Counted from the first letter of the stretch, positions 2,245 to 32,000 are shown. The stretch: 32,000 nucleotides of DNA from Candidatus Kuenenia stuttgartensis (GCF_900232105.1 NZ_LT934425.1:210001-242000), one strand, 5' to 3'. Numbers and translations are program-made. Notes: generated from the sequence alone by a model not told the origin.

Positions 2245-3123
2245 CTAAATTGAAGCGAGAGCTTCCAGTCTTTTTTTTAATTTTCCTATCAATTTGTCCT
2301 CATCCATTTCAACCTGATTTGAAGAATCGCACGAATTCAGAAATTCTGTAATATCTTTCTTACGCATGTTTGTCTGATAAAAAACGGTTATGTCCGGCGT
2401 TGATGTGGCAGGAGTCCTTGTTGTCATTTCATACAGGACGTAGTCATTCAGGTTTTCAGGCAGGTTTATCCGGTGCACCCTAAAGATTTCCCCTTTATGA
2501 AAGAATTTTCCTTTAAGATTGGTCAGTAATTTTCTTATGCTGTCAACAATTGGCTGCGCTTCGGATGCATACTGTCTTGTCGCATCCCGAAGGCATGGAT
2601 CACTGTTAATCTGATTAAGGATAGAGGCGATTATTGAATCTTTGGCGCTGGAGACAAATTGTCCTACTAAGTCCTTGCGCTTATTGCGCAATTTGAATAT
2701 TTTCAAGCCGATTGTTTTATCAAAGGCCGATGTGTTTATTTCACAAAGATTGCCATGCAAAATATTCTCTAGCCAATTATTGAATGCTGATTCGGTTGCC
2801 CTTCCAACGTTCTCTGCATATTTATCCTTAATTCCCGAAAGCCGATTGCAAAGGGCTTCCATATTCATGGCAACATCATATTGCCCTCCTTTCATGTAAC
2901 GTTTCTTAAAACACGGCTCGCAAATGATTTCATTATGCAAGTAGTAGCCTTCAGTATTGGGATTTGCAGTTGGTTGGCCGTATCTTTTTGTCAGCGCTGT
3001 TTGTTCGTATATCCGATTATCTCCGATTTGAGTTAGGCAAGCGCCACCCTCGTATTCGACCTTAACAATTTCGGAACATTTCAGGCAATGGTACCTATTT
3101 CCCTGAATATTCAGCCATGACAT
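2245..3123 (-). CDS. hypothetical protein with an N-terminal CxxC...CxxC zinc-ribbon-like motif
   Basis: 292-aa ORF with Cys pairs C13/C16 and C68/C71. I recognise no family. It lies downstream of the XRE-HTH gene on the same strand. Confidence 0.55.
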   Translation of the reverse strand: MSWLNIQGNRYHCLKCSEIVKVEYEGGACLTQIGDNRIYEQTALTKRYGQPTANPNTEGYYLHNEIICEPCFKKRYMKGGQYDVAMNMEALCNRLSGIKDKYAENVGRATESAFNNWLENILHGNLCEINTSAFDKTIGLKIFKLRNKRKDLVGQFVSSAKDSIIASILNQINSDPCLRDATRQYASEAQPIVDSIRKLLTNLKGKFFHKGEIFRVHRINLPENLNDYVLYEMTTRTPATSTPDITVFYQTNMRKKDITEFLNSCDSSNQVEMDEDKLIGKLKKRLEALASI

Positions 3124-9008: not shown

Positions 9009-9746
9009 TATTCTTCATACTCTGTTTAAATCGATAGCTTTCTCCATTGAACGTAAGAATATGGCTATGATGTGTTATTCCGGTCTAAAAGTGCCGACGT
9101 CATTGTGGGATCATTCATAAATTTCGTCCAATCAGCAAATTCCAGGTTGGAACTAATAATGGTCGCTCCATTTTCGTAGCGATCTGCAAAAAACTGAAAC
9201 AACAACTCTGATCCTTCTTTAGACAAGGGTAAATACCCTAATTCATCCAATATTACCAATTCGGCCTTGATGAGTCTTTTCTGTAGTCGAGACAATTGCT
9301 GCTCCGATCTGGCTTCCAACAACATATTCACCAGCTTCGCGGCAGTAAAAAACAATACGGTTTTTTTCTTCTTGCAAGCCTCAACTCCCAACGCTATCGA
9401 CAAGTGTGTCTTTCCCGTTCCTGTCTGACCTATAAAACAAATATTTTCTGATCTTTCTATATAACCACATTCACTCAGTCGAAATACCTCTTTGGCGTTT
9501 AAACCAGGAATCTCTTCAAATGCAAAATCAACAAGCGTTTTGATGAATGGAAAATTGTGCTTGTTTTATTAAATTCTTCACCCGATTCTGGTCCCGGTTT
9601 ACAATCTCCTCTTCGCTTAACGCTCTCAAATACTCTTCATACGGCTGGTTGTTTCGTGTCGCATACTCAGCAAATGATTTATGATGCTTCGAAAACATGG
9701 GAAGCTTTAATTGTTTTAAATTCAGTTCCAATATTGCATGATTCAT
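9009..9746 (-). pseudogene. istB: IS21-family IstB ATPase with two single-nucleotide frameshifts
   Basis: Walker A GQTGTGKTHLSIALG and Walker B LVILDELGY are present. The frame changes at the A4/T4 run 9551-9554 (..IKQAQF | PFIKTLVDFAFEE..) and at about 9076-9080 (..ALLDR | ITHHSHILTFNGESYRFKQSMKNKKGKEV*). The ATG at 9746 overlaps the istA stop as ATGA. Confidence 0.85.
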
Positions 9747-11276
9747 TCGCACTCCCTCCCCAATTGCATCAAAGAATTATAACGATTTAATGCTACATGA
9801 GGCACGTGCACATCGAGACGGGAGCTCTCAGACACATCCAGCCGCTCACTACGTACTACTATCCATCAACTTCTTGTTTTTTATGCTCGTTTTTCAAAAT
9901 GCATAACCGTAAGGCATTGATTAGATGAGGATTACGTAAAGTTTGGAGCATTGGGTTTTTTGTCATTTGAATTTGTTTCGTATTTCGATATTCGTATTTT
10001 GAATTTGGTTGCGGCCAAAGGCCGCGCCAAGGACTACTATGTCTTAATTGAATTAATACCTGTTTGACTCCTTCCACATCATACTGCTCATACGACATGG
10101 CCATTTCTATTGCAATTCCTAACTCTTCTACCGAATAGCTCCTCAATAATTCCAACACCTTTATACATTCCCTGGCAGTTCCATATCCCTTATGATATGC
10201 ACACTCAAAAAACTTCCTGAATATTGCCGGCAATTGACGAATCGGCTTGCTATTGATTGCAGTATACGGCTTCTCCGTATATACCGAAAGATAATGCAGT
10301 GGGTCGAATATTTGCCTGCCCTTCTGATCTGTCCTTTGATGGCGGGCAATCTCTTCTCCCTTGTAACTGGCTATTACCTCCTTTATCGTTATGACTATAT
10401 CCACTTGATGGTACGCATATCTGGTTGGCACAGAATAAAATGCTCCTTCCACTGATATCAGAGAATAGTGATTGGCTTTCGCGATCGCATGTATACCGAC
10501 ATCTATCTCCTTCAACGGCAATGCACGAAAACACCTTCTCTCTTCTTCGTAACGCTCACCAACAAGCTCCCCTGTCCCATATACCTTACGCTTTGCCCGA
10601 AGACTTTTACACCACTCAGATAATTCCCGATTACATTCTTCTAAATCACGTATCGTTGGCACTGGAGAAAAACAATTCCTCCTGACGTACCCTACCAGAC
10701 CCTCGACATCTCTCTTTTGCCACCCCTTGCCTCTTTCACAAAATTCTGCTTCAAACCCATATAGCTCACGAAATGTTCGAAAATGATCAGACTCCTCTCG
10801 TAACTTCCCCCTCAGGATCCGCTTCACCGCCTGGCTTAAATTGTCATACCGTACCTTTTGTGCTATACCATCAAAATATTCAAAGGCCAATTTGTGAGAA
10901 TAAAACAACGCTTCCTGTCGTTCACTCTCAGACACATATACAAAAATATCGTTTGAGTAGATTAATTGATAACAATGCAGACACAATTCTACCTCTTTAC
11001 CCTTGTAACACGCCTTTATATAACCAAAATCAAATTATATATACTCTCCTGGCGTAACTATTCCGCGAAAATAATTTAGAATTTACTTGACAGCAGAAAT
11101 GTTATAAACAAGCAATTTACCTGGTAGTGTATGTATATGTTTGTAAATGCGTTAAAAACAGGCAGCAAGATGCCGTGCATAGAGACGTGTGTGGGGTCTG
11201 TTCAGTGATAGAATTTCGAGCCTTTGTGGTGTGTTATAGAGCGAAAGAAAAGGGTGAAAAAACCTGTGGTATAATA
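9743..11276 (-). pseudogene. istA: IS21-family IstA transposase remnant (in-frame stops, internal repeat insertion, 5' end cut by IS630)
   Basis: DDE region ..FDFGYIKACYKGKEVELCLHCYQLIYSNDIFVYV..FEYFDGIAQKVRYDNLSQAV.. is present. In-frame TAA codons lie at 11035-11037 (PGEYI*FDFG) and 11083-11085. The true C-terminus LDVHVPHVALNRYNSLMQLGRECE* is in a different frame at 9743-9850, separated by the 156-bp repeat 9853-10008. The upstream part ends at the IS630 terminus, 11277. Confidence 0.8.
9853..10008. repeat. about 155-bp dispersed repeat, copy A (inserted in the 3' part of istA)
   Basis: By my hand alignment it is about 88 % identical to 28687-28840 (gtactactatccatcaacttcttg...aatgcataaccgtaaggcatt...gaatttgtttcg...). 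Confidence 0.75.
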
Positions 11277-11415
11277 TAGTCAAACAAATCAGATTTTCGA
11301 AATTTGCTCGCCAATAATTTGAAAATTTTCAGTTAAAAGAGTAGACAATTCATCTGTATACTCGTTAATATTTTTGAAAAAACTTAAACATTTGTTTTTA
11401 AACTTCTCATAAGTA

Positions 11416-13298
11416 GTGTCTGAACGAAAACTATCTTTTTTATGCAAGATTCTTTCTCTGAGCAAATTTAAATTTTTTTAAATTGCCCCTTTTTCAACTT
11501 TTTCTTCTACGCTTTAATCTATGATACGGTTGTTTTATTCATTTCCCTCGTTTTTACCATCTTTTCATGTTCTCCGGACATACTATCCCTCATGGATTTT
11601 TATTCGAGAGTGTTTTTACGCTGCCTTACGTACTGTTTCTTTTTCTTCCCGGACTTTCTTCTGCAATATACTCCCCATCGTGTGCAAATTTGCCGCCAGC
11701 ACTCCTAATGCGCAGTATCTTTTAAATCCTTCTATCCCTTTGTCTAAGCATCTGTCCAGCCCATGATGTTCTAACCGGTTAATATCTGACTCCACCGCTG
11801 AGTGCTTGTGCCTGAGTTTTTTAAATGTACTCTCCGATTCTTCTTCTGTCTCCGCCTTATTCCTTTTTCCTTTCTTCGGTATGATCACTTTCGGTATATA
11901 AAGACTTATCAGTTCCTTGTATTCCTTCTTGTAAAAACCCTTGTCTGCACTTATACTTTCTATCTCTTCTTCACCAAACAAATTTAATAGCTTGTCTGCT
12001 AACGGCAGAATTAACGCCACATCTGCTTCTTTTTCCACTACTTGGTGATATCCGATAAACCCCCATTGGTCACTTGCTATCACCAGATTGTGGCCTAATT
12101 CCACCCTCTTATTCGCCTTCCCTTTACTCAACCATTCTGTGTGTGGTTCAAACAGTGAATATACCTTTTCCCCTACCGGTATTTGCTCTTCCTTGATAAT
12201 TCTCCTCTCTACCAAATCTCTGTGCTTCTCCAGCATCTGATAAAAATATTCCATCGACTCCAATGCCTCTTTCTGCATTTCTTCCGCACCCATTGTTAAT
12301 ATTTTTTCGTACACCGCTATTATGCTCGCACCTATCTTCTCACTTAATCTCTTTGCTAATCCAAGATACTCTTTTACTTGCTTCTTAACCGCCTCCTCTT
12401 TCTTGTTTCCACCACCACTTGCCGCTTTCGAACTACTCCTCATCAGACTCTTTAGCTCTTTCCTCCAATTCTTTACCTTTCTCCATCCTTTCCCGTTCAA
12501 TACCCCTCCCTCTATAAATGCCTCTATCCCATCAAGGCACTTCCTACCCGCATCCCACAGCAAATTCATGTCCGTAGGAAAATGTACGTTTGTCTCCACC
12601 ACATACGTATCCGTCTTTATGCGGAGCTTCTCCTCCCGTCCGTTCTTTGCCAGCCTCTGGCCTGCCTTTACCACCACATCATTAATCTTCCCCAACGTCT
12701 CCTCATCGAGCAATCTTACGTTATCCTTGATGCTTTGCAGCGAATACTTCTTACCCCTCCCAAATACGGTATCTACTCCCATTATCTGACGAATCAGACT
12801 ATGGTGATTCACCATATCTTCCAACCTGTCATAATCCGCATCTAATCCCAATCTCACCACTCCTATTACCATTATCTGCCATAACTCCATACCATTACGC
12901 CCTGTCTCTTTCTTCCCACCCTTTACCTTTGCTTCCAATACCCTGAATACTTCCTCTCGTAATTCCTCTGTAACAAATATGTATTGTAATGCCCTCAAAA
13001 TCGGCGCTAACTCATCCCTGCTCTTTTCGGGAATTTCTACCTCTGATATTGGTGTGCTTCCAAGTCTCCTTTGCGGCTCGAATCTTTTTCTCATGGCGTG
13101 GCAGTTCTCCTTTTGATGACTCTGTTTTTCTGATGTTTTGGGCGAATGTTTGTCTCTTTTCACCCCTTGGTACCCTCGCTTCCCTTATTCTACGCCCTAA
13201 GTTTAACATCTACTCACTATACTTTCAACCCTTCATGCAGATACTTTCAACCTCCTTTACCACGTATTTCAAGGCTTACAGCGTTTTCGTTCAGACAC
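11416..13298 (-). mobile_element. 1883-bp IS with 16-bp perfect terminal IRs and a 6-bp target duplication (ISNCY/ISDol1-like or IS5-like)
   Basis: gtgtctgaacgaaaac at 11416-11431 is the reverse complement of 13283-13298. TAAGTA is duplicated at 11410-11415 and 13299-13304. The element is inserted inside the IS630 transposase gene. Confidence 0.85.
11616..13163 (-). CDS. DDE transposase (IS4/IS5-type DDE_Tnp_1 fold), apparently intact
   Basis: 515-aa ORF with TDTYVVETNVHFPTDMNLLWD, SADKGFYKKE and HSAVESDINRLEHHGLDRCLDKGIEGFKRYCALGVLAANL. An alternative start at 13094 (MRKRFEPQ) has AAGGAG upstream. Confidence 0.75.
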   Translation of the reverse strand: MKRDKHSPKTSEKQSHQKENCHAMRKRFEPQRRLGSTPISEVEIPEKSRDELAPILRALQYIFVTEELREEVFRVLEAKVKGGKKETGRNGMELWQIMVIGVVRLGLDADYDRLEDMVNHHSLIRQIMGVDTVFGRGKKYSLQSIKDNVRLLDEETLGKINDVVVKAGQRLAKNGREEKLRIKTDTYVVETNVHFPTDMNLLWDAGRKCLDGIEAFIEGGVLNGKGWRKVKNWRKELKSLMRSSSKAASGGGNKKEEAVKKQVKEYLGLAKRLSEKIGASIIAVYEKILTMGAEEMQKEALESMEYFYQMLEKHRDLVERRIIKEEQIPVGEKVYSLFEPHTEWLSKGKANKRVELGHNLVIASDQWGFIGYHQVVEKEADVALILPLADKLLNLFGEEEIESISADKGFYKKEYKELISLYIPKVIIPKKGKRNKAETEEESESTFKKLRHKHSAVESDINRLEHHGLDRCLDKGIEGFKRYCALGVLAANLHTMGSILQKKVREEKETVRKAA

Positions 13299-13718
13299 TA
13301 AGTATCATAATACTTGTTATACAATATTTTTTTGCGAAAGAATTTCCATAATCTTTCAATGAGATTTAAATTGGGTGAATAGGAAGGGAGAAATTTGATC
13401 TTTATTCTCGAATTTGCAAGGTATTCTTTGACCAACTTAGACCTGTAATATTTAGCATTATCAGAGATTATGTAAATAGTACCGGCTTGAGCATACCTTG
13501 ACTCTATTTCATGGAAAAGCTTTATTGTTGATTGAGCATTGATGCTTTCATCTTCCCGGATTGTTACTTCAAAGGTTTCTATGTCAATAGCACCGTTTAA
13601 ATTTATTCTTTTCCTGCCGGTATTAGAGGGTATTTCCTTCTTTTTGCCTTTCTCTATCCAGCAATATGCAGACGTAGAATTGTGCTGTGGATGAACTCCA
13701 TCCATAAAAAGTATCTTA

Positions 13719-13906
13719 TAGCCAAACAAATATGATTTTAGAGATTTGGCGATAAAATGGCTTTCTAAAAAACAGATTTATTTGACTAGGCATATTATCA
13801 AACACACCCCTAAATCCCCTCTTGATAGAGGGGACTTCTTATCTCCCCCCTAAAAAGAGGGGCCGGGGGTGTGTAAATTTTTCGAAAACCTTATTTGTTT
13901 GACTAT
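13719..13906. mobile_element. 188-bp MITE with IS630-type termini, TA target duplication, inserted in the IS630 transposase gene
   Basis: The termini tagccaaacaaatatgatttt and aaaaccttatttgtttgacta are inverted repeats that match the IS630 end at 11277. TA lies at 13717-13718 and 13907-13908. Removing the MITE restores ..KAPGDKILFMDGVH.. in frame. It carries a G/C-rich palindromic module at 13803-13875. Confidence 0.85.
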
Positions 13907-14561
13907 ATCTCCAGGGGCTTTCTCTTCTTTGAGTTGTTTGTAGTTTTCGATAAATTCTTTTTGTTTTTCAGGGTTTGCTTTGCCTGGAACTATTGTGGTT
14001 TTCTTGTAAGTAAAGCCTAATCTATCGAGGGTATGTACCATTCCTTCGGGTGTATAGGTCTTATTGAATGTCTGTTTTACATATTCAACAATTTCTTTTG
14101 CCGCGCTATAGTTGTTTTTCCTGATATGATCTTTTAATTGTTCTTCTTGTTCGCAAGTGAGTTTTGGCATACAGCCAACATAATTGTCAGATAAAAGCCC
14201 GTCGAAACCTTTATCTTTGTATAGTTTTTCGTAATTCCTGATTGTTTGATCGTCTAACAAGAGCGCTTCTGCTACTTCTTCATAACTCCATCCTGAATCA
14301 AGAAGAAGTATAGCTTTGATTCGGTCGGCATGACGTCTATGAGGCTCTTTCTTATGTGCTTTTTTAAATTCTATTCGGGTTTTTTCACTGAGAAATGGAT
14401 TCATGCAGAATTTAATACTCTAGAAACAATTCAAATGCAAGAAAAAAACAGATTTTTATAAAAATAAATGCTTTTTACTATATTTTTCGATTTTCTTTTT
14501 CCAACGTTTTTATTTGCTCAGCAAACTCTTTTTTCCCTTTGAGTTCTTTTTTATACTTTTC

Positions 14562-14834
14562 CATTACTTTGTTAAAAATCAACTTAGCTCACGACAAAGT
14601 CTTTGGCTTGTTGCATGGACTTTCACCTATTGGATCAAACAAAATGCTTATCTTACGAAAATCCTAGAAACGAAGCCTACTACCTTCAACGAAATCAAAC
14701 AGGCGGCCATTCCTTACTCGGATTTGCCTCTACCAACGCCTTATCAAAGAACGAAAAACTCGCCAATGACTATTTTAAATTTAAATCCAAACACTTAAAA
14801 AGAAATTGGTCACTTAATTTTTAACAAAGTAATG
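14562..14834. repeat. 273-bp segment bounded by perfect 18-bp inverted repeats (MITE-like or IS-end remnant)
   Basis: cattactttgttaaaaat at 14562-14579 is the reverse complement of 14817-14834. No convincing coding content lies inside. Confidence 0.6.
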
Positions 14835-14928
14835 TACGACATGTCTATACCAACAAACTATTTTACTTTTTTCAACACTTCAACCCTAAACAGAAACTTC
14901 TATTTTGTACACACCTCAAAACAGTACT

Positions 14929-17900
14929 TCAGCGGCAGGGTACAAAGCGTACCATGGTTTTCTTGTCTCTGATAACTTCTCCAAGAAGAGTAATGGTGCG
15001 GTCAATTTCTTCCATCATATTACCAAATCCCAGTGAGAAACGCAGTGCACAATGCGCCTCTTCTTCTGTAAGTCCCATTGCCAGCAAAGCGTGTGAAGGT
15101 TTAGGTGATCCGGCACGGCATGCAGAACCTGAAGAAAGGCTTATACCTTTCTGGTCCAGAGCAAGAACCACCGACTCTCCACGTATACCAGGCAAAGTCA
15201 TGTTTAAAGTATTTGGTAATAGTGCCTCTGGATTTCCGTTCATTTTTGCCTCGGCCATTAACTCTCGTATGCCTGCTTCCAACCTGTCTCGCATCCTCTT
15301 GATTCTATCCATTTCATGAATGCGCCGTACAGCCAGTTCTGCGGCTTTACCGAGCCCCACAATTCCTAACACATTTTCTGTCCCTGCACGCATTCCACTC
15401 TCCTGTTTACCTCCATTCACTAAGGGTTCCAGAACAATTCCTTTACTAATATACAAAGCACCAACACCCTTCGGACCGTATAATTTATGCCCTGACATTG
15501 TAAGCAAATCCACGCCAAGAGCTTCCACATCTATTGGGATCTTACCAACCGCCTGCACACAATCAGAATGAAATAGAACGTTGCGTTCCTTCGCTATACG
15601 GACCAGAGCTGCTATAGGATTAATAGAACCTGTCTCATTGTTCGCCATCATCACACTTATCAGGCATGTTTTTTCTGTGATTGCTGATTTCAAATCTTCC
15701 GGATTAAGCTTCCCGGTTTTATCAATTTTAAGGTATGTTACCATAAATCCATGTCTTTCAAGCCACTCGCATGTATTGATAACTGAAGGATGCTCTATGG
15801 TGGTTGTAATAATATGGTTTTTAGAATTCCAGTTTGCAAAGGCCACACCCTTTACAGCAAGGTTATTGGCCTCGGAACCACCACCGGTAAATATTATACG
15901 CCTTGCAGTACAATTGAGCAGCTGAGCCACACTCCGACGTGCCGCCTCAACTGCAAACCGAGCATCTTTTCCCTCGGTATAGATGCTCGAAGGATTTCCG
16001 TGACCATTCTCTATAAACTGCAGCATTATTTTCTTTACTTCAGGGTCAAGGGGAGTGGTGGCATTGTGGTCAAGATATATACGCTTCTCAATGTGCCGAG
16101 GCTTTACACTGGATTCTACCATGCCAGCAGTATCACAGTATTCACCGGAATCTACTTCAACTATTTTCTCTCTTTCTGTTGCCTTGGCCACGTCACACAG
16201 AAGGGTTTTATATACAGGGAAGCCTGAGATTGGATCATATCGCTGGAGATCTGTTAATTCATTTACATTGCAGTTCTGCCACTTCTCCGGTCCAACCGGT
16301 CCTCCACCACCCATATTGGCATCAATGGCGCCCTGAACAATATCATCAGTAACCAGCGCACACATCGTAACTGTACCGCGCTTTGTCATAATATTTACCA
16401 GATCTCCACTCTTAATGTTACGGGCTTCCGCATCCAGGGTATTAATCGTTACAGTCGGTTCGGGTCTTTCTTTCAGTAATCCGGATATACCATGATGCTG
16501 AGAACGGAAATCCGTGGTTACTCGCGACCCCGAATTGAAAACAAGTGGAAATTCCTCTGCAAGATCAGGCTGTGAATGAGGGCCTTCTCCCGGTTCTGTG
16601 TAGATGGGTAAAGGATCATAACCGTGCTCCTCAAGTATAGTTGAAGCTATTTCAAATTTTCCTGTTGGGGTATCAAATCCGGGCTTACCATCAGTGCGCA
16701 ATAATCCCTTTTCCCATTTCTTATACTGCATCATTACTGTAGGCGTCTGCACCGTTCCTTTTGCATGCTGAACATCTTCCAGTGCGAATCCTGAACCCTT
16801 TAATACATGCCTAAGGAGCTCTTCCTCATTCTTCGGATAAAGGTGTCCATATCCAAGTCTCCTTGCCAGTTCCGACAGGATAAAGAAATCATTGCGAGCT
16901 TCTCCAACAGGCTCAATAACCTTCTCTCTGATTCGAAAGATTGGACCATATGTCATGTATGATTCAATTTCATACATGGTAGTTGCCGGAAGGACAATAT
17001 CTGCATAAGCGGCATCTGCCGTTAATTGGCGATCGACAGATACAAGAAAATCAAGTTTATTCAATGTCTTACGCCAGACAGCAGGTTGAGGCCAGGCGGT
17101 AATGATTGACCCTCCAAGAATGATGAGAGATCGGATACGATAGGGTCTTCCCTCAAGTACAGATTCCGGTAACGCAATTGCATGAGATTCACCACGGTAT
17201 GCACTGTAAACAGGAAAGCGTTCTCTGCCCAATGCTTTTCGTACATCAGGATTGGCAATGCGATCTTCACGATTGATAGGGAAATTGTTCTGGTGCATGG
17301 TAAAACAACGCCCACCTGGCACATCAAGCTGTCCTGCAAGCGCCCAGAGAACCATTGTTGCGCGTATTGCCTGAACGCCACTGTCACTATACTCAAGTCC
17401 GCTATACATGATGGGTGAAGCGCCGTTTGCCTCTGCAATTCTCCTGGCAAGAGATTTAATTGTCTCTGCCGGCACACCCGTAATGCTTTCTACGGCATCC
17501 GGCCCGAAGTGTTGAACATATCTGGCAAGGTCATCAAAACCAACTGACCAATTTTTTACAAAGTCCTCGTCATATAATTCCTCTTCTATGATAACATTGC
17601 ACATACCAAGAGCAAGGGCTCCATCAGTACCAGGGCGTATTGGAATCCACTCCGCATCGGTAAGCTTTGCTGTCATGGTTCTTCGTGGATCAATTACGAC
17701 AATCTGCGCACCTTGCTTCTGTGCATTAACAATTCTATTAAGATCAAACGGCGGACAATCGGTAGCAGGATTTGTCCCCCAGACTACTATCATCTGGGCA
17801 TTTTCAAGATCCGAAAACATATTAATCAGCATCCCCCCCATAGTAGTATGAGGAGCAATCATAGCAAATGAAACGTAACAGAGAGCCCCCACACCAAGAG

Positions 17901-18336
17901 TATTTGGTGAACCAAATGGAAACAAAACGCTTGATGCCGATGAAACAGCCACGCCCTTCGGCTGAAAGATGTCACACATGGCAAGCTCAAAGCTTCCCCG
18001 TCCGGTATAAATAGCAGTAGCCTCCGGTCCTGACTCTTCTTTAATTTTATTAAGGTTTTCAACGATAATATCATAAGCATTATCCCAGGAAATCCTCTCA
18101 AACTCATATGTCCCCTTTGGACCCTTTCTCCGCATCGGGTAGCGAAGTCGATCTTTGGAATATACAATTTCCGCAGAGTGTTCTCCGAGCTTGCAAATCA
18201 TCCCCAGATGAGAGCTTCGATCAGGGCATACTTTATCAATCATTCCCTTCTCATCGTAGGTAACGGTAACCCAGCAGCCTGCCGGGCAGATTCCGCAAAT
18301 TGCATGTTTATCATTAATACTGCTTCTTGATTCCAT
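14929..18336 (-). CDS. fusion protein: Mo/W-bis(pyranopterin guanine dinucleotide) oxidoreductase (acetylene-hydratase/formate-dehydrogenase-like) N-module plus class-V cysteine desulfurase (NifS/IscS-like) C-module; candidate metallopterin-dependent ergothioneine synthase
   Basis: 1135-aa uninterrupted ORF. The N-terminal Fe-S motif CGICPAGCWV...C is followed by typical MopB segments (VVWGTNPATD, VVIDPRRT, IRPGTDGAL) and a C-terminal molybdopterin-binding barrel (..VTINTLDAEARNIKSGDLV..). From about residue 750 it reads IYLDHNATTP, GGGSEANN, the PLP-lysine SGHKLYGPKGVGALY and the catalytic Cys SSGSACRAG. Confidence 0.8.
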   Translation of the reverse strand: MESRSSINDKHAICGICPAGCWVTVTYDEKGMIDKVCPDRSSHLGMICKLGEHSAEIVYSKDRLRYPMRRKGPKGTYEFERISWDNAYDIIVENLNKIKEESGPEATAIYTGRGSFELAMCDIFQPKGVAVSSASSVLFPFGSPNTLGVGALCYVSFAMIAPHTTMGGMLINMFSDLENAQMIVVWGTNPATDCPPFDLNRIVNAQKQGAQIVVIDPRRTMTAKLTDAEWIPIRPGTDGALALGMCNVIIEEELYDEDFVKNWSVGFDDLARYVQHFGPDAVESITGVPAETIKSLARRIAEANGASPIMYSGLEYSDSGVQAIRATMVLWALAGQLDVPGGRCFTMHQNNFPINREDRIANPDVRKALGRERFPVYSAYRGESHAIALPESVLEGRPYRIRSLIILGGSIITAWPQPAVWRKTLNKLDFLVSVDRQLTADAAYADIVLPATTMYEIESYMTYGPIFRIREKVIEPVGEARNDFFILSELARRLGYGHLYPKNEEELLRHVLKGSGFALEDVQHAKGTVQTPTVMMQYKKWEKGLLRTDGKPGFDTPTGKFEIASTILEEHGYDPLPIYTEPGEGPHSQPDLAEEFPLVFNSGSRVTTDFRSQHHGISGLLKERPEPTVTINTLDAEARNIKSGDLVNIMTKRGTVTMCALVTDDIVQGAIDANMGGGGPVGPEKWQNCNVNELTDLQRYDPISGFPVYKTLLCDVAKATEREKIVEVDSGEYCDTAGMVESSVKPRHIEKRIYLDHNATTPLDPEVKKIMLQFIENGHGNPSSIYTEGKDARFAVEAARRSVAQLLNCTARRIIFTGGGSEANNLAVKGVAFANWNSKNHIITTTIEHPSVINTCEWLERHGFMVTYLKIDKTGKLNPEDLKSAITEKTCLISVMMANNETGSINPIAALVRIAKERNVLFHSDCVQAVGKIPIDVEALGVDLLTMSGHKLYGPKGVGALYISKGIVLEPLVNGGKQESGMRAGTENVLGIVGLGKAAELAVRRIHEMDRIKRMRDRLEAGIRELMAEAKMNGNPEALLPNTLNMTLPGIRGESVVLALDQKGISLSSGSACRAGSPKPSHALLAMGLTEEEAHCALRFSLGFGNMMEEIDRTITLLGEVIRDKKTMVRFVPCR

Positions 18337-18356
18337 AAATATTCCTTTTACTACTA

Positions 18357-19358
18357 TTAATCAATAGACGGCGCAAACAGGTTCAGGCTGAAAAACCGTT
18401 CAGGGTCAAACCATTGCTGTTCCACATAAAGGCCTGTCTTTTCTGCCAGCGTATCAATATCGTCGAGTGAATACTTGAATGAGTTTTCCGTGTGGATAGT
18501 TTCATTCGCCTTAAAACAAACCTCTAATTCAATGTCACGGATGAAGACCTTCTGATCAATATTACTGATCAGGTACATCTCAATTCGTCCAACTTTTTCA
18601 TTGTAAATTGCCTTATGATCAAATTTTTCGATATTAAAATTACCTCCAAGTTCTCTATTCACGTGTGTGAGGAGGTTCAGGTTGAACTCAGCAGTGATAC
18701 CCTGTGAATCATTGTAGGCATTTTCTATAATAGTTTTATCTTTTTGTAAATCTATGCCGACCAGAAACCTGTCATTGGGGAGCATTATTTTCTGTATATG
18801 TCGTAGAAGAGTCGTCACCTCTGACCTACCAAGGTTACCAATACTTGACCCTAACCATATAATGAGTTTCCGTTGTGCTGCCTGGATATTTAATTGATGA
18901 ATTCCTTCATTATATCGAGCGGCAATTGCATTTATTTCCAGATTCGGATATGCCTTGAGCAGAGAATAAGAACTTTCCTCAAGCATTTGGCGAGACACAT
19001 CTATAGGAGAATAATAAGCCAGACTTTGATGTTTAAGGAAGGTCTCTATTAAAATTCTTGTTTTTGTTGAGCTCCCACTTCCTAATTCTATAAGAGCAGT
19101 CTCTTTCGGAAATCGAGAGACAATATCATCCACGTTTGTCTCAAGGATATTCGTTTCTGTGCGCGTCGGGTAGTATTCCGGGAGTTCACAGATTTTCTCA
19201 AACAACTGTGATCCGATATGATCATAGAAATAAACAAAAGGAAGGTATTTGGACTCAGAGGCAAGACCGATTTTGACGTCTTCGGAGAAGTTATTTATGA
19301 AGATCTCGTCATCGGTTGTTGTAAGCATAAACCGCTCTTCAATTTTTGAAGTTGGCAT
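18357..19358 (-). CDS. egtD: EgtD-type SAM-dependent L-histidine N-alpha-methyltransferase (Methyltransf_33)
   Basis: Motifs FYDHIGSQLFEKICELPEYYPTRTE, LIELGSGSSTKTR, WLGSSIGNL, AYNDSQGITAEFNLNLL and TENSFKY are present. The preferred start is the ATG at 19358 with GGAGGA 10 nt upstream; the track start at 19376 is a TTG. The stop is 20 bp upstream of the fusion gene. Confidence 0.85.
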   Translation of the reverse strand: MPTSKIEERFMLTTTDDEIFINNFSEDVKIGLASESKYLPFVYFYDHIGSQLFEKICELPEYYPTRTETNILETNVDDIVSRFPKETALIELGSGSSTKTRILIETFLKHQSLAYYSPIDVSRQMLEESSYSLLKAYPNLEINAIAARYNEGIHQLNIQAAQRKLIIWLGSSIGNLGRSEVTTLLRHIQKIMLPNDRFLVGIDLQKDKTIIENAYNDSQGITAEFNLNLLTHVNRELGGNFNIEKFDHKAIYNEKVGRIEMYLISNIDQKVFIRDIELEVCFKANETIHTENSFKYSLDDIDTLAEKTGLYVEQQWFDPERFFSLNLFAPSID

Positions 19359-19588
19359 TAGATGTTTCTCCTCCAAAGATGACAGGAAATTGCCTTTTTC
19401 TATCGGGTGTTCAGTTTAATAAAAACAAAGAAAATTACAAGATCTTTTTATTTTATCAGCCCTATTGAACACCAAAGAAGAGAGGCGTAGGGAAGAAGGA
19501 TGTGGAATTATAGGTGAACTATAAGAAAATGGATAATGTGCAGCACATTACCCGATTTTATACAAGAAATTGACAAAGGCTTGCTCCC

Positions 19589-20127
19589 ATGCAAATGGGG
19601 AACGGCAAGACCTTCCCCATATCCTGCAGAGAGAGTATGCGTGCCGTTTTAGACGGTTATAGCAGACAAATAGTCCATTGGGAAATCCGGAAAACAATGA
19701 AGGAAACGGAGGTGGAAATTATCCTGAAACGGGCTAAAGAGAAGTATCCAAATGTCAAACCAAGGATCATTTCTGACAATGGTCCACAGTTCATAGCAAA
19801 GGATTTCAAGGACTATCTCCGGATAAGCGGGACGGCACATGTTAAAACAACACCTTTCTATCCTCAAAGTAACGGAAAAATAGAAAGATGGCACAAGACA
19901 ATAAAGCAGGAAGTATTCGCTCCTATTGCCCTGTAAACCTGCAAGATGCCCGGCGAATCGTGGATGAATTTGTTGTGCATTACAACACGAAACGATTACA
20001 TAGCGCAATAGGTTATATCGCCCCGCAGGACAAATTGCTCGGACGTAAAAAAGAAATCTTTTTGGAACGAGACCGAAAATTAAGTGAAGCGCGGCAACGG
20101 CGGGCGGCTAAACGAAAGATCGTTTGA
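19589..20127 (+). pseudogene. rve (integrase-core) DDE transposase remnant, 5'-truncated and frameshifted (IS3/IS481-like, family unresolved)
   Basis: AVLDGYSRQIVHWEI..PRIISDNGPQFIAKDF..FYPQSNGKIERWHKTIKQE, then a -1 shift near 19905-19915 into SIRSYCPVNLQDARRIVDEFVVHYNTKRLHSAIGYIAPQDKL. There is no N-terminal HTH region. Confidence 0.75.
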
Positions 20128-20385: not shown

Positions 20386-20691
20386 GTGAATCAACACAAG
20401 ATGAACCGTAGAAATCTTGTCCGGGCGTTTGATATTGCCAAGGAAAATGCCAGCATACAAAACTTTCATTTCCACGATGTACGCCATTGCTTTGCGACAA
20501 GGTTAGCGCAAAGGGGCATTGATATTTACAGAATATCAAAACTGCCAGGGCATCTTAACATCACCATGACCCAGCGTTATGCACATCATTGTCCTGAAAG
20601 TTTAAGGGGTGGGATCGAGGTTTTAGAGAAAGTTGACTACAGTGGGGGTAAACAGAAATGTATCAACGGCCTGAAAACCCTTATAAAATAA
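20386..20691 (+). pseudogene. C-terminal fragment of a tyrosine recombinase/phage-type integrase
   Basis: Only about 100 aa are present: FHFHDVRHCFATRLAQRGIDIYRISKLPGHLNITMTQRYAH (the catalytic H-x-x-R, H and Y region). The N-terminal two thirds are missing. It ends 1 nt from the tRNA 3' end. Confidence 0.75.
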
Positions 20692-20692
20692 G

Positions 20693-20765
20693 AGCCCGCG
20701 ATCGGAGTCGAACCGACAACCTCATCATTACGAATGACGTGCTCCGCCAATTGAGCTACGCGGGC
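20693..20765 (-). tRNA. tRNA-Thr (anticodon CGU)
   Basis: Hand-folded cloverleaf: acceptor GCCCGCG/CGCGGGC, D-arm GCTC..GAGC, anticodon stem CGTCA/TGATG with loop TTCGTAA, T-arm GTCGG TTCGACT CCGAT. There is no encoded CCA. Confidence 0.9.
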
Positions 20766-26109: not shown

Positions 26110-27705
26110 TTACATGCTATTGAACTTTGCAATCAACATTGGCACACCAATTATGGTTATCATTCTCGCCATGTTAAAACAGGTTGATAGAATTGATAGT
26201 TCTGCATCAACCCCTTCCCTGCCCCGCAATAAAAATTGACCGGCTCCTAAATTCCGTTTCATATGACCAAATTGTAATTCTACCTTTTCTTTACGCAATT
26301 TATAGAGCTTCTGGCTTTCTTCCTCGTGGTATATTTCTTCGAGTCGCTCTTTAAGTTCTTCTAGTTTTACCATTCGCACTACCCGCCTACCATCTTTGCA
26401 GGTAGTGCATTTTCCAAAATGCCGGCATTCACGACACTCTTTACCTACGGCCTTGTAACTTACTTTCTCCTCAGAACCAAATGCGAATCCTTTCTTCTCA
26501 AGTATCTTTCCTTCAGGACAAATATATACATCCTTTTCCTTATCGTAGCTAAACTCTTCCTTACCAAACGGCTCTAACTCCGTTTTCTTGTTCTCTTTTT
26601 GCGCCTGCCTTCTGCCCGGCATTATTACCTTTACATCTTCCGGTACTTTCTCTATATCTTTAAGACTGAAATATCCCGCATCGCTCACTACCTCTGCCGG
26701 CGGCTTCCCCAAGGTTTCTGTACACTGTTTCACCTGCCCTGAGAGTTGATTCAGATCGTTGTTCTGACTAACGGCTTCGCTGTTTACTATTAATCCGTGT
26801 TTCTTGTCCGTGCTTACCTGGCAATTCATTATTGCATGACTCCCCTGCCTTCAGACTGGGTCAAATGAACTTTGTTGTCTCAAAAGTGGGGGCAACTCCT
26901 CGCATTATGCCTGTTTTAGACCATATTTAGTGCTGTTTTCCCATTAAAGTGGAGAATGCCTGTCGTAAAATAGGATAAAATTGTCCATTTGACCCAGTCT
27001 GCTTGTCTTGCCATTGACACTATCACTATCCGTAGTATTGATCTTCTCTTTACCGCTCTCCTTGAGTTTCTTCGATATCTCTTTTACCTTCGCCTGCAAT
27101 TTCTCATTGCTCTGAAGCTCTTCTTTTAGCTTCACTAATGACCCCTTACTGTCTTCTTCCTTGTCTATCCGTTCGGCTTCTTCCATTATCCTTTCTATAT
27201 TTTTCTCCGCTATCTCTAAATATTTCCCGCACTTCTTTTCATCCCACGTATTATTTATAGAGGCATTCGCCCTGAATTTACTCCCGTCTATAAACAAGAT
27301 GTTTCCCGCTATCAATCCAATCTCTATACAGAATTTTACATTCTGATTTAAAACCTGCTTTATCGCTTCTTTATTCTCTCTGCGAAATCTCGATATCGTA
27401 CGGTAATCAGGTTTTATACCGGATACTAACCACATGAAGGATAGATTATGATAGTACGCCCTTTCCAGTCTGCGGGAACTCCTTTCCCCATAGGCATATC
27501 CATATACGATTAATTTTAAGAGCGCCCTTGGATGATATTCATGCGCACCGGCTTTATACGCATTGATCTCAAAACCCATTTCCTGAAGGTCTAAGCTCTC
27601 TATAAATGCATCATACGCCCTCACAGGATCTTCTTTTCCTACATAATCTTGTATTACCGGTGGAAAAAGTGTGTTTTGATCTCTGTTCCCTATAATATAT
27701 GCCAT
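26110..27705 (-). pseudogene. IS1182-family transposase split by a MITE insertion
   Basis: N-part (27004-27705): HPRALLKLIVYGYAYGERSSRRLERA..DYRTISRFRREN..INTTDSDSVNGKT. C-part (26110-26848): RQGSHAIMNCQVSTDKKHGLIV..VVSDAGYFS..CRECRHFGKCT..FGHMKRNLGAGQFLLRG. Removing 26852-27000 plus one CTT restores the frame. Confidence 0.8.
26852..27000. mobile_element. 149-bp MITE with the IS1182 element's own termini, 3-bp duplication CTT
   Basis: cagactgggtcaaatg at 26852-26867 is the reverse complement of 26985-27000. CTT lies at 26849-26851 and 27001-27003. Confidence 0.85.
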
Positions 27706-28930: not shown

Positions 28931-30828
28931 GTTGGGTTTTTAAAACGGATGTTCACCCCTGCCAAAACGCATAAGTGCTTAATACATAGTTTGTTAAGGC
29001 TGTATTTTTAATAAATATGTAGTCACTAATATATTGTTATTATACGACAATATACTTGACGGATAATGGTTGTTATCTGTACAATGGTGGACATGCATAT
29101 TGTAGAGAACAAGTCAAAATCCGGTAAAAAAATCTATCGATCTACCCTTCTGCGGGAATCGTACCGTGAGGATGGGAAGGTCAAGAAACGCACCATTGCG
29201 AATCTGTCGAATTGCACTCCCCTGGAGATTGAAGCGATAAGACTTGCACTCGCACATAAAGACGATCTCTGTGCATTGGGCGCATTGTCAGAATCGGTGA
29301 AACTCCATGAGGGTTTGTCTGTGGGAGCAGCGTGGAGCGTGTACCAAGTGGCAAAGGAATTAGGGATAGAAGAGGCATTGGGAAAGGACTTTGAAGGAAA
29401 GCTGGCGCTTTGGCAAGTAATGGCAAGGGTAATAGGCCGGGGGTCAAGACTGTCTGCAGTAAGGCTGGCGCAGATACATGCTGCGGGTGACGTCCTGGAT
29501 ATGAAGCGTGGGTTTGACGAGAACAATCTGTACGATAATTTGTCATGGTTGTCAGAGAATCAGGCAAAGATAGAGCGAAAGCTGTTTGAGTTAAGACGAG
29601 GAGGCAATAAGCCGAAGTTGTTTTTGTATGACGTGACGAGCAGTTATTTAGAGGGGAAGTCGAATCATTTTGGTGAGTACGGGTATAATCGTGACGGCAA
29701 AAAGAGGAAAAAACAGATAGTGATCGGTATGCTTTGTGATGAATCCGGGGAGCCGGTATCAACAGAAGTATTTAGGGGCAACACCCAGGATCCGAAGACC
29801 TTTGAATCTCAGGTAAAGAAGGTATTAGAGCGGTTTGGATGCAAAGATGTAACGATTGTAGGAGATCGTGGGATGATCAAGACGGTGCAAATCGAAAGTT
29901 TACCGGAAGGGTTTCATTACATAACGGCGATAACTAAGCCGCAGATAGAGTCGTTGATAAATAAAGGGATACTGCAATTAGGATTGTTCGAAGAAAAGCT
30001 CTGCGAGATAAAGGATGATGAGGTTCGATATATTCTGAGGCGCAATCCGGTAAGGGCGGAAGAGATGTCAAAGACCCGTGTATCAAAATTACAGAGTATA
30101 GAGAAATACATCGTGAAGAAGAACAGTTATCTGAAGGAACATCCTAAGTCGTCAGTATCGAAGGCACTGGAAACAACAAGGGAAAGGCTAACGAGATTGA
30201 AACTTGATGGGTGGGTGCAGATAAAAGAAGAGGATAGGACGCTAAAGATAGAGAGAGATGAGGAAGCATTAAAGGAGGCATCATACCTTGATGGTTGTTA
30301 CGCAATCAAGACTGATCTTGAGGAGAACGAGGCGGATACCAATCTGGTACATGAACGATACAAGGATTTAACGGAAGTGGAGAAGGCGTTTCGGGACTGT
30401 AAGACGGTGAATTTGGAGGTTCGTCCGGTGTATGTAAGAAAGGAGGATAGTACACGGGGACATGTGTTTGTGGTAATGCTTGCGTACATGATAATTCGAA
30501 GGCTGCGCAGAGCGTGGAAGAATTTTGACTTGACGGTAGAGGAAGGTCTCGCACAATTGACGACCATTTGTTCGATGGAAGTAACAATCAAAGGCCAAAA
30601 AGCTAGTTGCCAGAAGATCCCGCGTCCGCGGCAACAATCACATGAATTATTAGAGGCATTACAGATAAAGTTGCCAGAAGTATTGCCAAGCCGGAACATA
30701 CGGGTAGTCACTAGAAAAAAGCTTGCTGTTCGGCGTAAAAGTCAATAAATATAAGGCTTTTACGGCACTTTTGTTTTTTGACTTGGGGTGAACATCCGTT
30801 AAAAGACAAAAACCCAACCTAATTTATA
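28931..30828 (+). mobile_element. IS1634-family (IS4-related) element, 1898 bp
   Basis: Terminal IRs: tataaattaggttgggtttttaaaacggatgttcacccc at 28931 versus ggggtgaacatccgttaaaagacaaaaacccaacctaatttata ending at 30828. I see no clear target duplication. Confidence 0.8.
29066..30748 (+). CDS. IS1634-family DDE transposase, apparently intact
   Basis: 560-aa ORF: HIVENKSKSGKKIYRSTLLRESYREDGKVKKRTIANLS.., YDVTSSYLEG, VGDRGMI, LDGCYAIKTD and VEKAFRDCKTV-LEVRPVYV. The true start is probably the M at 29093. Confidence 0.85.
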   Translation: MVVICTMVDMHIVENKSKSGKKIYRSTLLRESYREDGKVKKRTIANLSNCTPLEIEAIRLALAHKDDLCALGALSESVKLHEGLSVGAAWSVYQVAKELGIEEALGKDFEGKLALWQVMARVIGRGSRLSAVRLAQIHAAGDVLDMKRGFDENNLYDNLSWLSENQAKIERKLFELRRGGNKPKLFLYDVTSSYLEGKSNHFGEYGYNRDGKKRKKQIVIGMLCDESGEPVSTEVFRGNTQDPKTFESQVKKVLERFGCKDVTIVGDRGMIKTVQIESLPEGFHYITAITKPQIESLINKGILQLGLFEEKLCEIKDDEVRYILRRNPVRAEEMSKTRVSKLQSIEKYIVKKNSYLKEHPKSSVSKALETTRERLTRLKLDGWVQIKEEDRTLKIERDEEALKEASYLDGCYAIKTDLEENEADTNLVHERYKDLTEVEKAFRDCKTVNLEVRPVYVRKEDSTRGHVFVVMLAYMIIRRLRRAWKNFDLTVEEGLAQLTTICSMEVTIKGQKASCQKIPRPRQQSHELLEALQIKLPEVLPSRNIRVVTRKKLAVRRKSQ

Positions 30829-30956: not shown

Positions 30957-32000
30957 CTAATCTTTACCCACAAATTTCAAGAGCACCGTAGTTGTACGGC
31001 CAATTGAGCTGAAGGCTAAGTGGTGTAAAGTTCGTAAGCAACTTCAATATCAGCCAAACGTGACATGCCTCGCCAAAGTACTTCACTTCCGGGATGGCCA
31101 TCACCACGGCGACCCAGATGACCGCCAAGTTTACCTAAAAGCCGCACGGCATCATTGAGGCTTGGAGGTAAATCAGGAGGCTCCTTGACCTTGTTCGCAA
31201 AAGTTGTCAATGCTTTCCATTCAGAATCGCTGAAGTAGACAGTACAAGGGACATCAGGTGTTTCTTGTCCTAAAGTAGTCAGGTAATGGATACGCCAAGC
31301 TATAATCATATCAATGGCCAAAGCGTTGCACAGACGACGGGCACTCTCCAACTGCCGGGACTCGACACGACAACCGCTCTTGATAATACGATGATAACAC
31401 TCAATACCCCATCGGCGAGCATACCATTCCAAACGTTCGTAAGCATCTTTTTCATGCTTAACCGCAACTGTAGTTAACAGCATCCATTCTAACCCATCAA
31501 TTCCGATAGGCGGATTGACTTCCTGCGCCAGCACCGCCCACACCCTGACCGCAGGCATATTCTTTTTTAGCATAGGTGGGCGTAGCGTAACAGGCATCGT
31601 TCGTACCATAAGTATTGCCTGACGTGCGGAGCGTTTCTCACTCGGAGGTATCAATATTTCGCGGGTACCTATAACCGGTTGCTGTTCCAGTTTAGTCCAC
31701 AAAAACTCGCATGATTCTTTATCATCAACAACCGTTCTATTGCGCGAACGTTCTGCACGGATCAGCAACTGAGCGCCATCAGGCGTATTATACTGCTCAG
31801 CGAATACCTCGTGAATATCGGCCTCACGATCTGCCACAACCACCAGCAAAGATTTGTTTCGACAGCGTTTCTGTACTTGCGATACTGCATGGTAACTCTC
31901 CACCCATTTCCAGCTTTCCTTCTCTTCGATAGGCTTCTTGTGTCGTTCATGTTTGCTGCCTATTCCGTCCCGCGCCCAGCATTGCACATTCAGAAGTCCC
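30957..32000 (-). mobile_element. IS4-family, Tn5/IS50-like element (one end visible; continues beyond the window)
   Basis: The terminal sequence ctaatctttacccacaaat resembles the Tn5 outside end (CTGACTCTTATACACAAGT), and the transposase gene lies 60 bp inside it. Confidence 0.65.
31016..32000 (-). CDS. Tn5-like IS4-family transposase, partial (N-terminus outside the window)
   Basis: VVADREADIHEVF (second Asp region), YARRWGIECYHRIIKSGC (the Glu/YREK region) and a C-terminal dimerisation-type tail LWRGMSRLADI. The frame is open to position 32000. Confidence 0.85.
   Translation of the reverse strand, partial: GLLNVQCWARDGIGSKHERHKKPIEEKESWKWVESYHAVSQVQKRCRNKSLLVVVADREADIHEVFAEQYNTPDGAQLLIRAERSRNRTVVDDKESCEFLWTKLEQQPVIGTREILIPPSEKRSARQAILMVRTMPVTLRPPMLKKNMPAVRVWAVLAQEVNPPIGIDGLEWMLLTTVAVKHEKDAYERLEWYARRWGIECYHRIIKSGCRVESRQLESARRLCNALAIDMIIAWRIHYLTTLGQETPDVPCTVYFSDSEWKALTTFANKVKEPPDLPPSLNDAVRLLGKLGGHLGRRGDGHPGSEVLWRGMSRLADIEVAYELYTT

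Follow-up and report, generated by a model that had tools for sequence, protein, structure and literature searches.

The stretch of DNA considered here, referred to as the window, comprises 32,000 nucleotides of Candidatus Kuenenia stuttgartensis (NZ_LT934425.1:210001-242000); all positions given are window positions. Two adjacent genes on its minus strand, one for an EgtD-type histidine methyltransferase and one for a metallopterin enzyme fused to a cysteine desulfurase, very probably constitute the oxygen-independent ergothioneine pathway of K. stuttgartiensis, judging from their sequences. In this pathway the fusion protein would act as a metallopterin-dependent ergothioneine synthase (MES). 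The pathway reading is correct but already known: it was published in 2022, with the exact accession of the window fusion, A0A2C9CAM6, listed in Table S1 of that publication. A lateral origin of the gene pair from a Scalindua-like source is a secondary inference, and the signal for it is modestly, that is partly, new.

MES was described from Caldithrix abyssi by Beliaeva and Seebeck (JACS Au 2022; PMC9516567). The N-terminal module of the C. abyssi enzyme (CaMES; residues 1-718) is kin to the tungsten enzyme acetylene hydratase, and its C-terminal module has cysteine desulfurase activity. The variants C153S, K952A, C1074S and C1135S lose activity about 2000-fold, with ergothioneine production abolished, while C1097S costs only a factor of two. 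Sulfur transfer is obligatorily intramolecular, and sulfur exchange at the pterin site is reversible; in an isotope experiment, the K952A variant still shuttled sulfur between ergothioneine and trimethylhistidine (TMH). Four MES homologues from different phyla (Ca, Ab, Ea and hv) yielded ergothioneine from TMH in E. coli. In 2022, homologues were counted in 55 genomes, and the MES-bearing genomes surveyed there are described as being without EgtB-like and EanB-like enzymes. Inclusion in Table S1 required conservation of Cys153, Lys952, Cys1074, Cys1097 and Cys1135; besides A0A2C9CAM6, the table contains two more Kuenenia, three Scalindua, three Jettenia and one Brocadiaceae entry (PMC9516567).

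By exact-sequence look-up, the window fusion is identical to UniProt A0A2C9CAM6 of K. stuttgartiensis, and also to GJQ49685.1, MBE7547047.1 and others. In a homology search the best named matches were Candidatus Scalindua proteins at 80-82% identity, and others reached 89%; a Scalindua origin of the window was discarded in view of the exact look-up and of the DNA comparison with Kuenenia assemblies. End to end, it shares 68% identity with CaMES by BLASTP and 70.9% by MAFFT with a cleaner copy of CaMES; both figures are approximate lower bounds, as the reference was machine-read from the supplement PDF and contains errors. All nine residues that define the family are in the fusion, namely C14, C17, C21, C48, C153, K951, C1073, C1096 and C1134, with those of the C-terminal module numbered one lower than in CaMES (952, 1074, 1097 and 1135). 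None of the nine varies in any of 36 aligned homologues, which were drawn from at least ten phyla (Planctomycetota, Nitrospirota, Desulfobacterota, Chloroflexota, Gemmatimonadota, Actinomycetota, Bacillota, Bacteroidota, Spirochaetota and two archaeal orders). The locus shows the following features by which a member of the MES family is recognised: a two-module polypeptide, the four cysteines of an Fe4S4 cluster, a metal-ligand cysteine, the lysine that binds pyridoxal phosphate (PLP), the relay cysteines and an adjacent egtD gene.

An earlier note on this DNA, made without database searches, had pointed to the C. abyssi layout and proposed that the locus encodes a metallopterin-dependent third route to ergothioneine, beside those of EgtB and EanB. 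The layout given there agrees with the published one (PMC9516567), and the proposal itself is borne out by a fusion that is collinear with CaMES at 68-71% identity, keeps the nine residues and lies next to egtD. The alignments suggested in that note likewise came out in its favour, with the fusion aligning end to end with CaMES, the N-terminal module lying nearer to acetylene hydratase than to formate dehydrogenases, and the metal-ligand cysteine conserved. Its expectation that the gene would carry only a generic annotation is matched by the public names of MES proteins, which read 'IscS subfamily cysteine desulfurase', 'cysteine desulfurase NifS', 'aminotransferase class V' or 'molybdopterin-dependent oxidoreductase'. 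NCBIfam release 20 holds no MES model. Together with these names, this means that the ergothioneine capacity of anaerobes is systematically missed by annotation.

The fusion gene occupies positions 14929..18336 (minus strand; 1135 aa from an ATG start in a mechanical listing of open reading frames, ORFs). Its N-terminal metallopterin module, of the bis-molybdopterin guanine dinucleotide (bis-MGD) type, spans residues 1 to about 718 (16183..18336, with boundaries set after CaMES) and matches the Pfam families Molybdopterin (PF00384, residues 63-492, E 5e-46) and Molydop_binding (PF01568, residues 601-711, E 4e-16). The C-terminal PLP-dependent cysteine desulfurase module comprises about residues 746-1135 and the stop codon (14929..16101) and matches Aminotran_5 (PF00266, residues 753-1113, E 3e-82). 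The domain matches are full-length, with E-values far beyond chance. Between the modules lies a poorly conserved linker that aligns only weakly with CaMES (about residues 719-745; 16102..16182); as the Pfam domains stop at residue 711 and resume at 753, its length varies between 28 and 41 aa with the choice of domain boundaries. The Fe4S4 motif reads C14-x2-C17-x3-C21...C48, and the metal-ligand cysteine sits in GVGALC(153)YV. The PLP lysine is found in SGHK(951)LYGPKG and the persulfide cysteine in SSGSAC(1073)RAG; C1096 and the penultimate C1134 are both present in the C-terminal module. The earlier note's description of a 1135-aa fusion of a bis-pterin enzyme with a cysteine desulfurase thus stands, with every quoted motif located, and its estimate of about 35 aa for the linker falls within the range just given.

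Among solved structures, the N-terminal module ranks acetylene hydratase (2E7Z, E 5e-72) before thiosulfate reductase (4e-54) and formate dehydrogenases (about 1e-53); a search of the PDB gave no solved MES structure. When the two are aligned, C153 coincides with the metal-ligand cysteine of 2E7Z. Directly after the second Fe-S cysteine, 2E7Z has an aspartate, the catalytic Asp13 of acetylene hydratase. In the fusion this position is held by Pro18; among the 36 homologues it is proline in 30 and aspartate in none. Because of this replacement, the N-terminal module of MES is predicted to be hydratase-like and yet no hydratase. The C-terminal module gives full-length matches to cysteine desulfurases in the PDB (E 1e-90 to 1e-105) and matches the NifS/IscS models of NCBIfam with E-values of 1e-145 to 1e-114; against the NifS equivalog TIGR03402 it scores 484 bits, below the cut-off of 530.75. 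It is accordingly a NifS-like domain and no orthologue of housekeeping NifS, so that 'IscS/NifS cysteine desulfurase', as the protein is publicly named, describes it incompletely.

The second gene, egtD, encodes an L-histidine N-alpha-methyltransferase at 18357..19358 (minus strand; 333 aa from an ATG). The ORF matches Methyltransf_33 (Pfam, E 6e-109) and scores 366.7 bits with the NCBIfam equivalog TIGR03438 (egtD_ergothio; cut-off 290.9), in agreement with the family assignment of the earlier note; the EasF subfamily-domain model is barely passed (208.2 versus 205.55). Identity to the EgtD of M. smegmatis (PDB 4PIM/4PIO) is 38.6%. In EgtD crystal structures, histidine is contacted by Tyr39, Phe47, Tyr56, Thr163, Asn166, Tyr206, Thr213, Glu282 and Ser284 (PMC8593015). 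These positions map to Y45, F53, Y62, S172, N175, Y215, T222, E291 and S293 of the Kuenenia protein, and Gly161 and Met252 of the M. smegmatis enzyme are kept as G170 and M261. The histidine site, loss of which the earlier note would have counted against an EgtD, is hence preserved, the conservative change from T163 to serine being the sole one among the residues checked. In public annotation, a protein of exactly this 333-aa sequence is named 'L-histidine N(alpha)-methyltransferase [Candidatus Kuenenia]'; in UniRef the protein goes by the name '4-dimethylallyltryptophan N-methyltransferase'. The two gene products carry the accessions GJQ49684.1/GJQ49685.1 and, for the original genome, UniProt Q1Q5D7/Q1Q5D6.

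The two genes are separated by a spacer of 20 bp, exactly 18337..18356, in which AAAGGAA serves as the ribosome-binding motif of the MES gene. The earlier note had given this distance, and a span of 14929-19376 for the pair; the MES end and both ORFs hold, and the start of egtD needs to be moved. The mechanical methyltransferase ORF (18357..19376) reaches back to a TTG at 19376. A GGAGGAG Shine-Dalgarno sequence precedes the ATG at 19358 and is overlapped by the TTG; because of this, and because the 333-aa form equals a public sequence exactly, translation most likely begins at the ATG of 19358 instead of the TTG. The genes egtD and MES probably form one operon. Similarly tight arrangements with egtD upstream occur in three loci of the Scalindua group (L002-L004; gaps of 18-24 bp). 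Promoter and terminator scans of 14300-19700 returned counts at or below the shuffled expectation and are therefore uninformative on operon structure. The G+C content is uneven inside the cassette, with 45.4% for MES and 38.9% for egtD, compared with 41.2% for the whole window.

From these assignments and from CaMES biochemistry, the following course can be proposed for Kuenenia. In a first step, EgtD would turn histidine into TMH; in a second, MES would add sulfur at C2 of the imidazole ring. By analogy with CaMES, the C-terminal PLP desulfurase, through Lys951, would strip sulfur from cysteine and leave a persulfide on Cys1073. The sulfur would then be handed on inside one polypeptide, from Cys1073 to the penultimate Cys1134 and on to the Mo or W centre of the bis-pterin module, which is presumably held by Cys153 and placed beside the Fe4S4 cluster on Cys14/17/21/48. 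Attack of the imidazole C2 of TMH on a terminal sulfido ligand of this centre would give ergothioneine.

No other enzyme for sulfur insertion was seen in the window: among its scanned ORFs of at least 110 aa there is no FGE-sulfatase, DinB_2 or rhodanese match, and no EgtB-, EanB- or OvoA-like gene, as the earlier note had said for EgtB and EanB. Some points weigh against the pathway assignment. The egtB/eanB check spans only the 32 kb of the window, the chemistry was demonstrated with four homologues other than the Kuenenia enzyme (Ca, Ab, Ea and hv), and a literature search for ergothioneine together with anammox gave no paper linking the two; the error-bearing CaMES reference belongs here as well.

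Relatives of MES were found in at least 590 species-representative genomes, compared with the 55 genomes of 2022, and synteny was read from the best 80 loci (L001-L080). An egtD homologue adjoins MES in 61 of these 80. It lies upstream, as in Kuenenia, in 25 (including all Scalindua loci and those of Gemmatimonadota) and downstream in 36, mostly from Nitrospirota, Desulfobacterota, Chloroflexota and archaea. Nineteen loci are without an adjoining egtD, and in all of them except L015 and L044 a contig end lies beside the gene. Conservation across the best 80 loci is 59-91% for MES and 32-83% for the adjoining EgtD. The change of side and this gap in conservation point either to rearrangement or renewed pairing of egtD and MES, or to very different constraint on each of them.

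Only two other neighbours recur in the best 80 loci, a ProV-like ATPase of the ATP-binding cassette (ABC) type (250 aa, 14 loci) and a 505-aa protein in which an OsmF-like betaine-binding domain is fused to a ProW-like permease (seven loci: L001, L002, L005, L041, L054, L067 and L076). In three Scalindua loci, the ATPase, the 505-aa fusion and egtD-MES make up a four-gene cluster; the ATPase and binding-domain/permease pair lies at 7241-9507 in L001, 2592-4858 in L002 and 2060-4326 in L005. This linked ABC system may be a transporter of ergothioneine or trimethylhistidine. When the Scalindua flanking genes (ABC ATPase, binding-domain/permease fusion, an MscS-like protein and others) were compared with the window by tblastn, neither matches nor pseudogene remnants were found. 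One locus with an MES about 90% identical to that of Kuenenia, L004 (CAXMPV010000076.1), is labelled 'uncultured Thermodesulfobacteriota bacterium'; its downstream genes are as in the Scalindua loci L003 and L062, and it is probably a mis-binned Scalindua contig.

The relationships among anammox bacteria point to a lateral origin of the cassette. Kuenenia belongs to the Brocadiaceae and Scalindua to the Scalinduaceae. In MAFFT alignments, however, the Kuenenia MES is 89-91% identical to that of marine Scalindua metagenome-assembled genomes, 80-82% to that of other Scalindua/Scalinduaceae, and 71-72% to that of Jettenia/Brocadiaceae; the Jettenia/Brocadiaceae sequences cluster with those of Nitrospirota. 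In 200 neighbour-joining replicates, bootstrap support is 100% for Kuenenia with marine Scalindua and 0% for Kuenenia with Jettenia/Brocadiaceae. A baseline is provided by pyruvate:ferredoxin oxidoreductase (PFOR), encoded about 3 kb away in the same window, with 82-85% identity to Scalindua and 80-83% to Brocadia/Brocadiaceae, while a group of Kuenenia relatives reaches 92-96%; it is too conserved to separate the Brocadiaceae from the Scalinduaceae and backs the asymmetry argument only indirectly. DNA homologous to Scalindua (82-86%) is confined to 14835/14929-19377, which is to say to the two genes, and the flanks match only at a tRNA. Just past the MES stop codon, a pair of 21-nt inverted repeats (95% complementary, 231 nt apart) lies at 14562-14834; its right arm ends at 14834, and homology to the Scalindua locus L001 stops at 14835. 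The segment 14562-14834 may be a small insertion at the cassette boundary that resembles a miniature inverted-repeat transposable element.

The tRNA in question is tRNA-Thr(CGU), at 20692..20765 on the minus strand (ARAGORN). Next to it, on the plus strand at 20386..20691, lies the C-terminal fragment of a truncated tyrosine recombinase (101 aa; PF00589, profile positions 102-169 only, E 3e-16), the stop codon of which directly abuts the 3' end of the tRNA gene. Integrative elements inserted at tRNA genes typically leave such an abutment, and tRNA-Thr(CGU) probably served as the integration site for the cassette-bearing island. On account of the graded identities, the bootstrap result, the restriction of DNA homology to the cassette and the remnant at tRNA-Thr, it is rather likely that the Kuenenia lineage took the two-gene cassette from a Scalindua-like donor, within an island that is now degraded. 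Against this it must be held that the tree was built by neighbour-joining only, that PFOR is a single and very conserved baseline, and that the 3' end of tRNA-Thr does not recur in the window at up to three mismatches, so that no far attachment site marks the boundary of the island there.

The surroundings of the cassette are rich in mobile elements. Directly upstream of egtD, an integrase-core (rve) transposase fragment lies at 19589..19936 on the plus strand (PF00665, E 1e-11), which public gene calls at Kuenenia loci extend with rve_3; beyond the upstream remnants follow housekeeping genes, those for KdsA, a hydrogenase maturation protease and PFOR. Directly downstream of MES, an insertion sequence (IS) of the IS630 family was identified by Pfam at 13298..14404 (minus strand), with a helix-turn-helix ORF at 13850-14404 and a DDE_3 ORF at 13298-13729; it is split by an IS4-like element with 28-nt terminal inverted repeats (11404..13310, minus strand). 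Fragments of IS21 type, an IstB and a Mu-transposase-like ORF, occupy 9065-10986. A composite transposon was ruled out, as the IS elements on either side are from different families. About one third of the window is IS-derived (9065-14404, 19589-20127, 26110-27705 and 31016-31987), and an IS5/IS1182-like element with split ORFs and a Tn5-like transposase are present as well. Two further ORFs, of 560 aa (29066-30748, plus strand) and 292 aa (2245-3123, minus strand), gave no significant Pfam family, with weak matches to DUF7117 (E 0.005) and a ZZ-finger (E 0.008) only.

In such surroundings, the cassette might be an inert passenger of a decaying island, intact in sequence and either unexpressed or physiologically irrelevant. 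The IS630, IS4-like, IS21, rve and integrase fragments all round it fit this idea, as do the missing counterpart of the Scalindua-linked betaine-type ABC transporter and the chance-level outcome of the promoter and terminator scans. Both ORFs, however, are intact and have good ribosome-binding sites. Over more than 22 kb, DNA identity between the window and the Kuenenia assemblies GCA_027493735.1 and GCA_900232175.1 is 99.97%, and 114 contigs encode an identical MES protein, among them one 4.4-Mb chromosome and contigs of several independent Kuenenia assemblies; the neighbouring IS content differs among strains (L083 versus L081, L082 and L084). The persistence of an identical MES amid varying IS content argues for purifying selection, and an inert cassette is very unlikely.

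A different product is less probable again. In this scenario, the pair would make selenoneine, the NifS-like module drawing selenium from selenocysteine, or else would thiolate some other imidazole or betaine. NifS-type enzymes are akin to selenocysteine lyases, as the matches to SclA and to a selenocysteine lyase in the PDB illustrate, and the selenium question is not taken up in the available portions of PMC9516567. The EgtD histidine site with its single conservative exchange nevertheless speaks for a histidine-derived substrate, the four diverse MES homologues reported there all gave ergothioneine from TMH, and the selenium-metabolism genes selD and senA/B/C are absent from the window.

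Hardly credible, finally, is a metallopterin enzyme of the acetylene hydratase or formate dehydrogenase type with another substrate, whose own NifS module matures the Fe-S cluster or sulfurates the cofactor and whose egtD neighbour is incidental: the NCBIfam matches to NifS, Fdh-alpha and PhsA are all sub-threshold, and cofactor activation by the desulfurase was itself raised as an alternative before testing in PMC9516567, but the high identity to a characterised MES, the retention of every relay cysteine including a C-terminal one for which a stand-alone NifS has no need, the linkage to egtD across many phyla, Pro18 in place of the aspartate of acetylene hydratase, and the continued movement of sulfur between ergothioneine and TMH by the pterin module of the K952A variant all favour ergothioneine synthesis.

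Taken more broadly, the evidence leans towards anaerobic ergothioneine synthesis as a self-contained, mobile two-gene trait among anammox bacteria, which Kuenenia would have received from a marine Scalindua-like donor by way of a tRNA-Thr element, the betaine-type ABC transporter being left behind. The indications of lateral transfer, together with the linked transporter in Scalindua, suggest that the trait is traded among anaerobes. If so, and this is pure speculation, selection would repeatedly have favoured ergothioneine as a protectant in anammox metabolism, for example against reactive nitrogen intermediates. A test of ergothioneine in anammox physiology is feasible in K. stuttgartiensis, which has been studied more than any other anammox organism and grows in enrichment culture.

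Several known systems can be set beside the two genes. Quaternary-amine ABC transporters of the OpuC/EgtUV type find their likeness only in the egtD-MES loci of Scalindua and four other lineages, where the binding domain comes first and the permease follows. MES is unrelated to the established sulfur inserters EgtB (oxygen-dependent, with non-haem iron) and EanB (rhodanese-like); the EgtD of M. smegmatis performs the same first step and has its substrate-contact residues in common with Kuenenia EgtD. Acetylene hydratase (Syntrophotalea/Pelobacter acetylenica, 2E7Z) resembles MES in its bis-MGD fold, in the CxxCxxxC...C motif for Fe4S4 near the N-terminus and in the cysteine that ligates the metal. 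It lacks a fused desulfurase and catalyses a hydration instead of a sulfur transfer, and the identity, at only about 27%, is low (PMC9516567). NifS/IscS proteins (E. coli IscS, 1P3W; H. pylori NifS, 5WT2) have the PLP lysine and the persulfide-loop cysteine in common with the C-terminal module of MES. Unlike them, this module is fused to a pterin enzyme, carries the additional, family-specific C1096 and C1134, and delivers sulfur within its own polypeptide. The closest parallel is CaMES (UniProt A0A7V4WV16), with 1136 aa as opposed to 1135 aa, a matching two-module architecture and a co-encoded EgtD. The Kuenenia enzyme differs from it in an unrelated linker sequence and one extra, non-conserved cysteine (Cys37); it belongs to a Scalindua-type subclade with egtD upstream, whereas in many other lineages egtD lies downstream.

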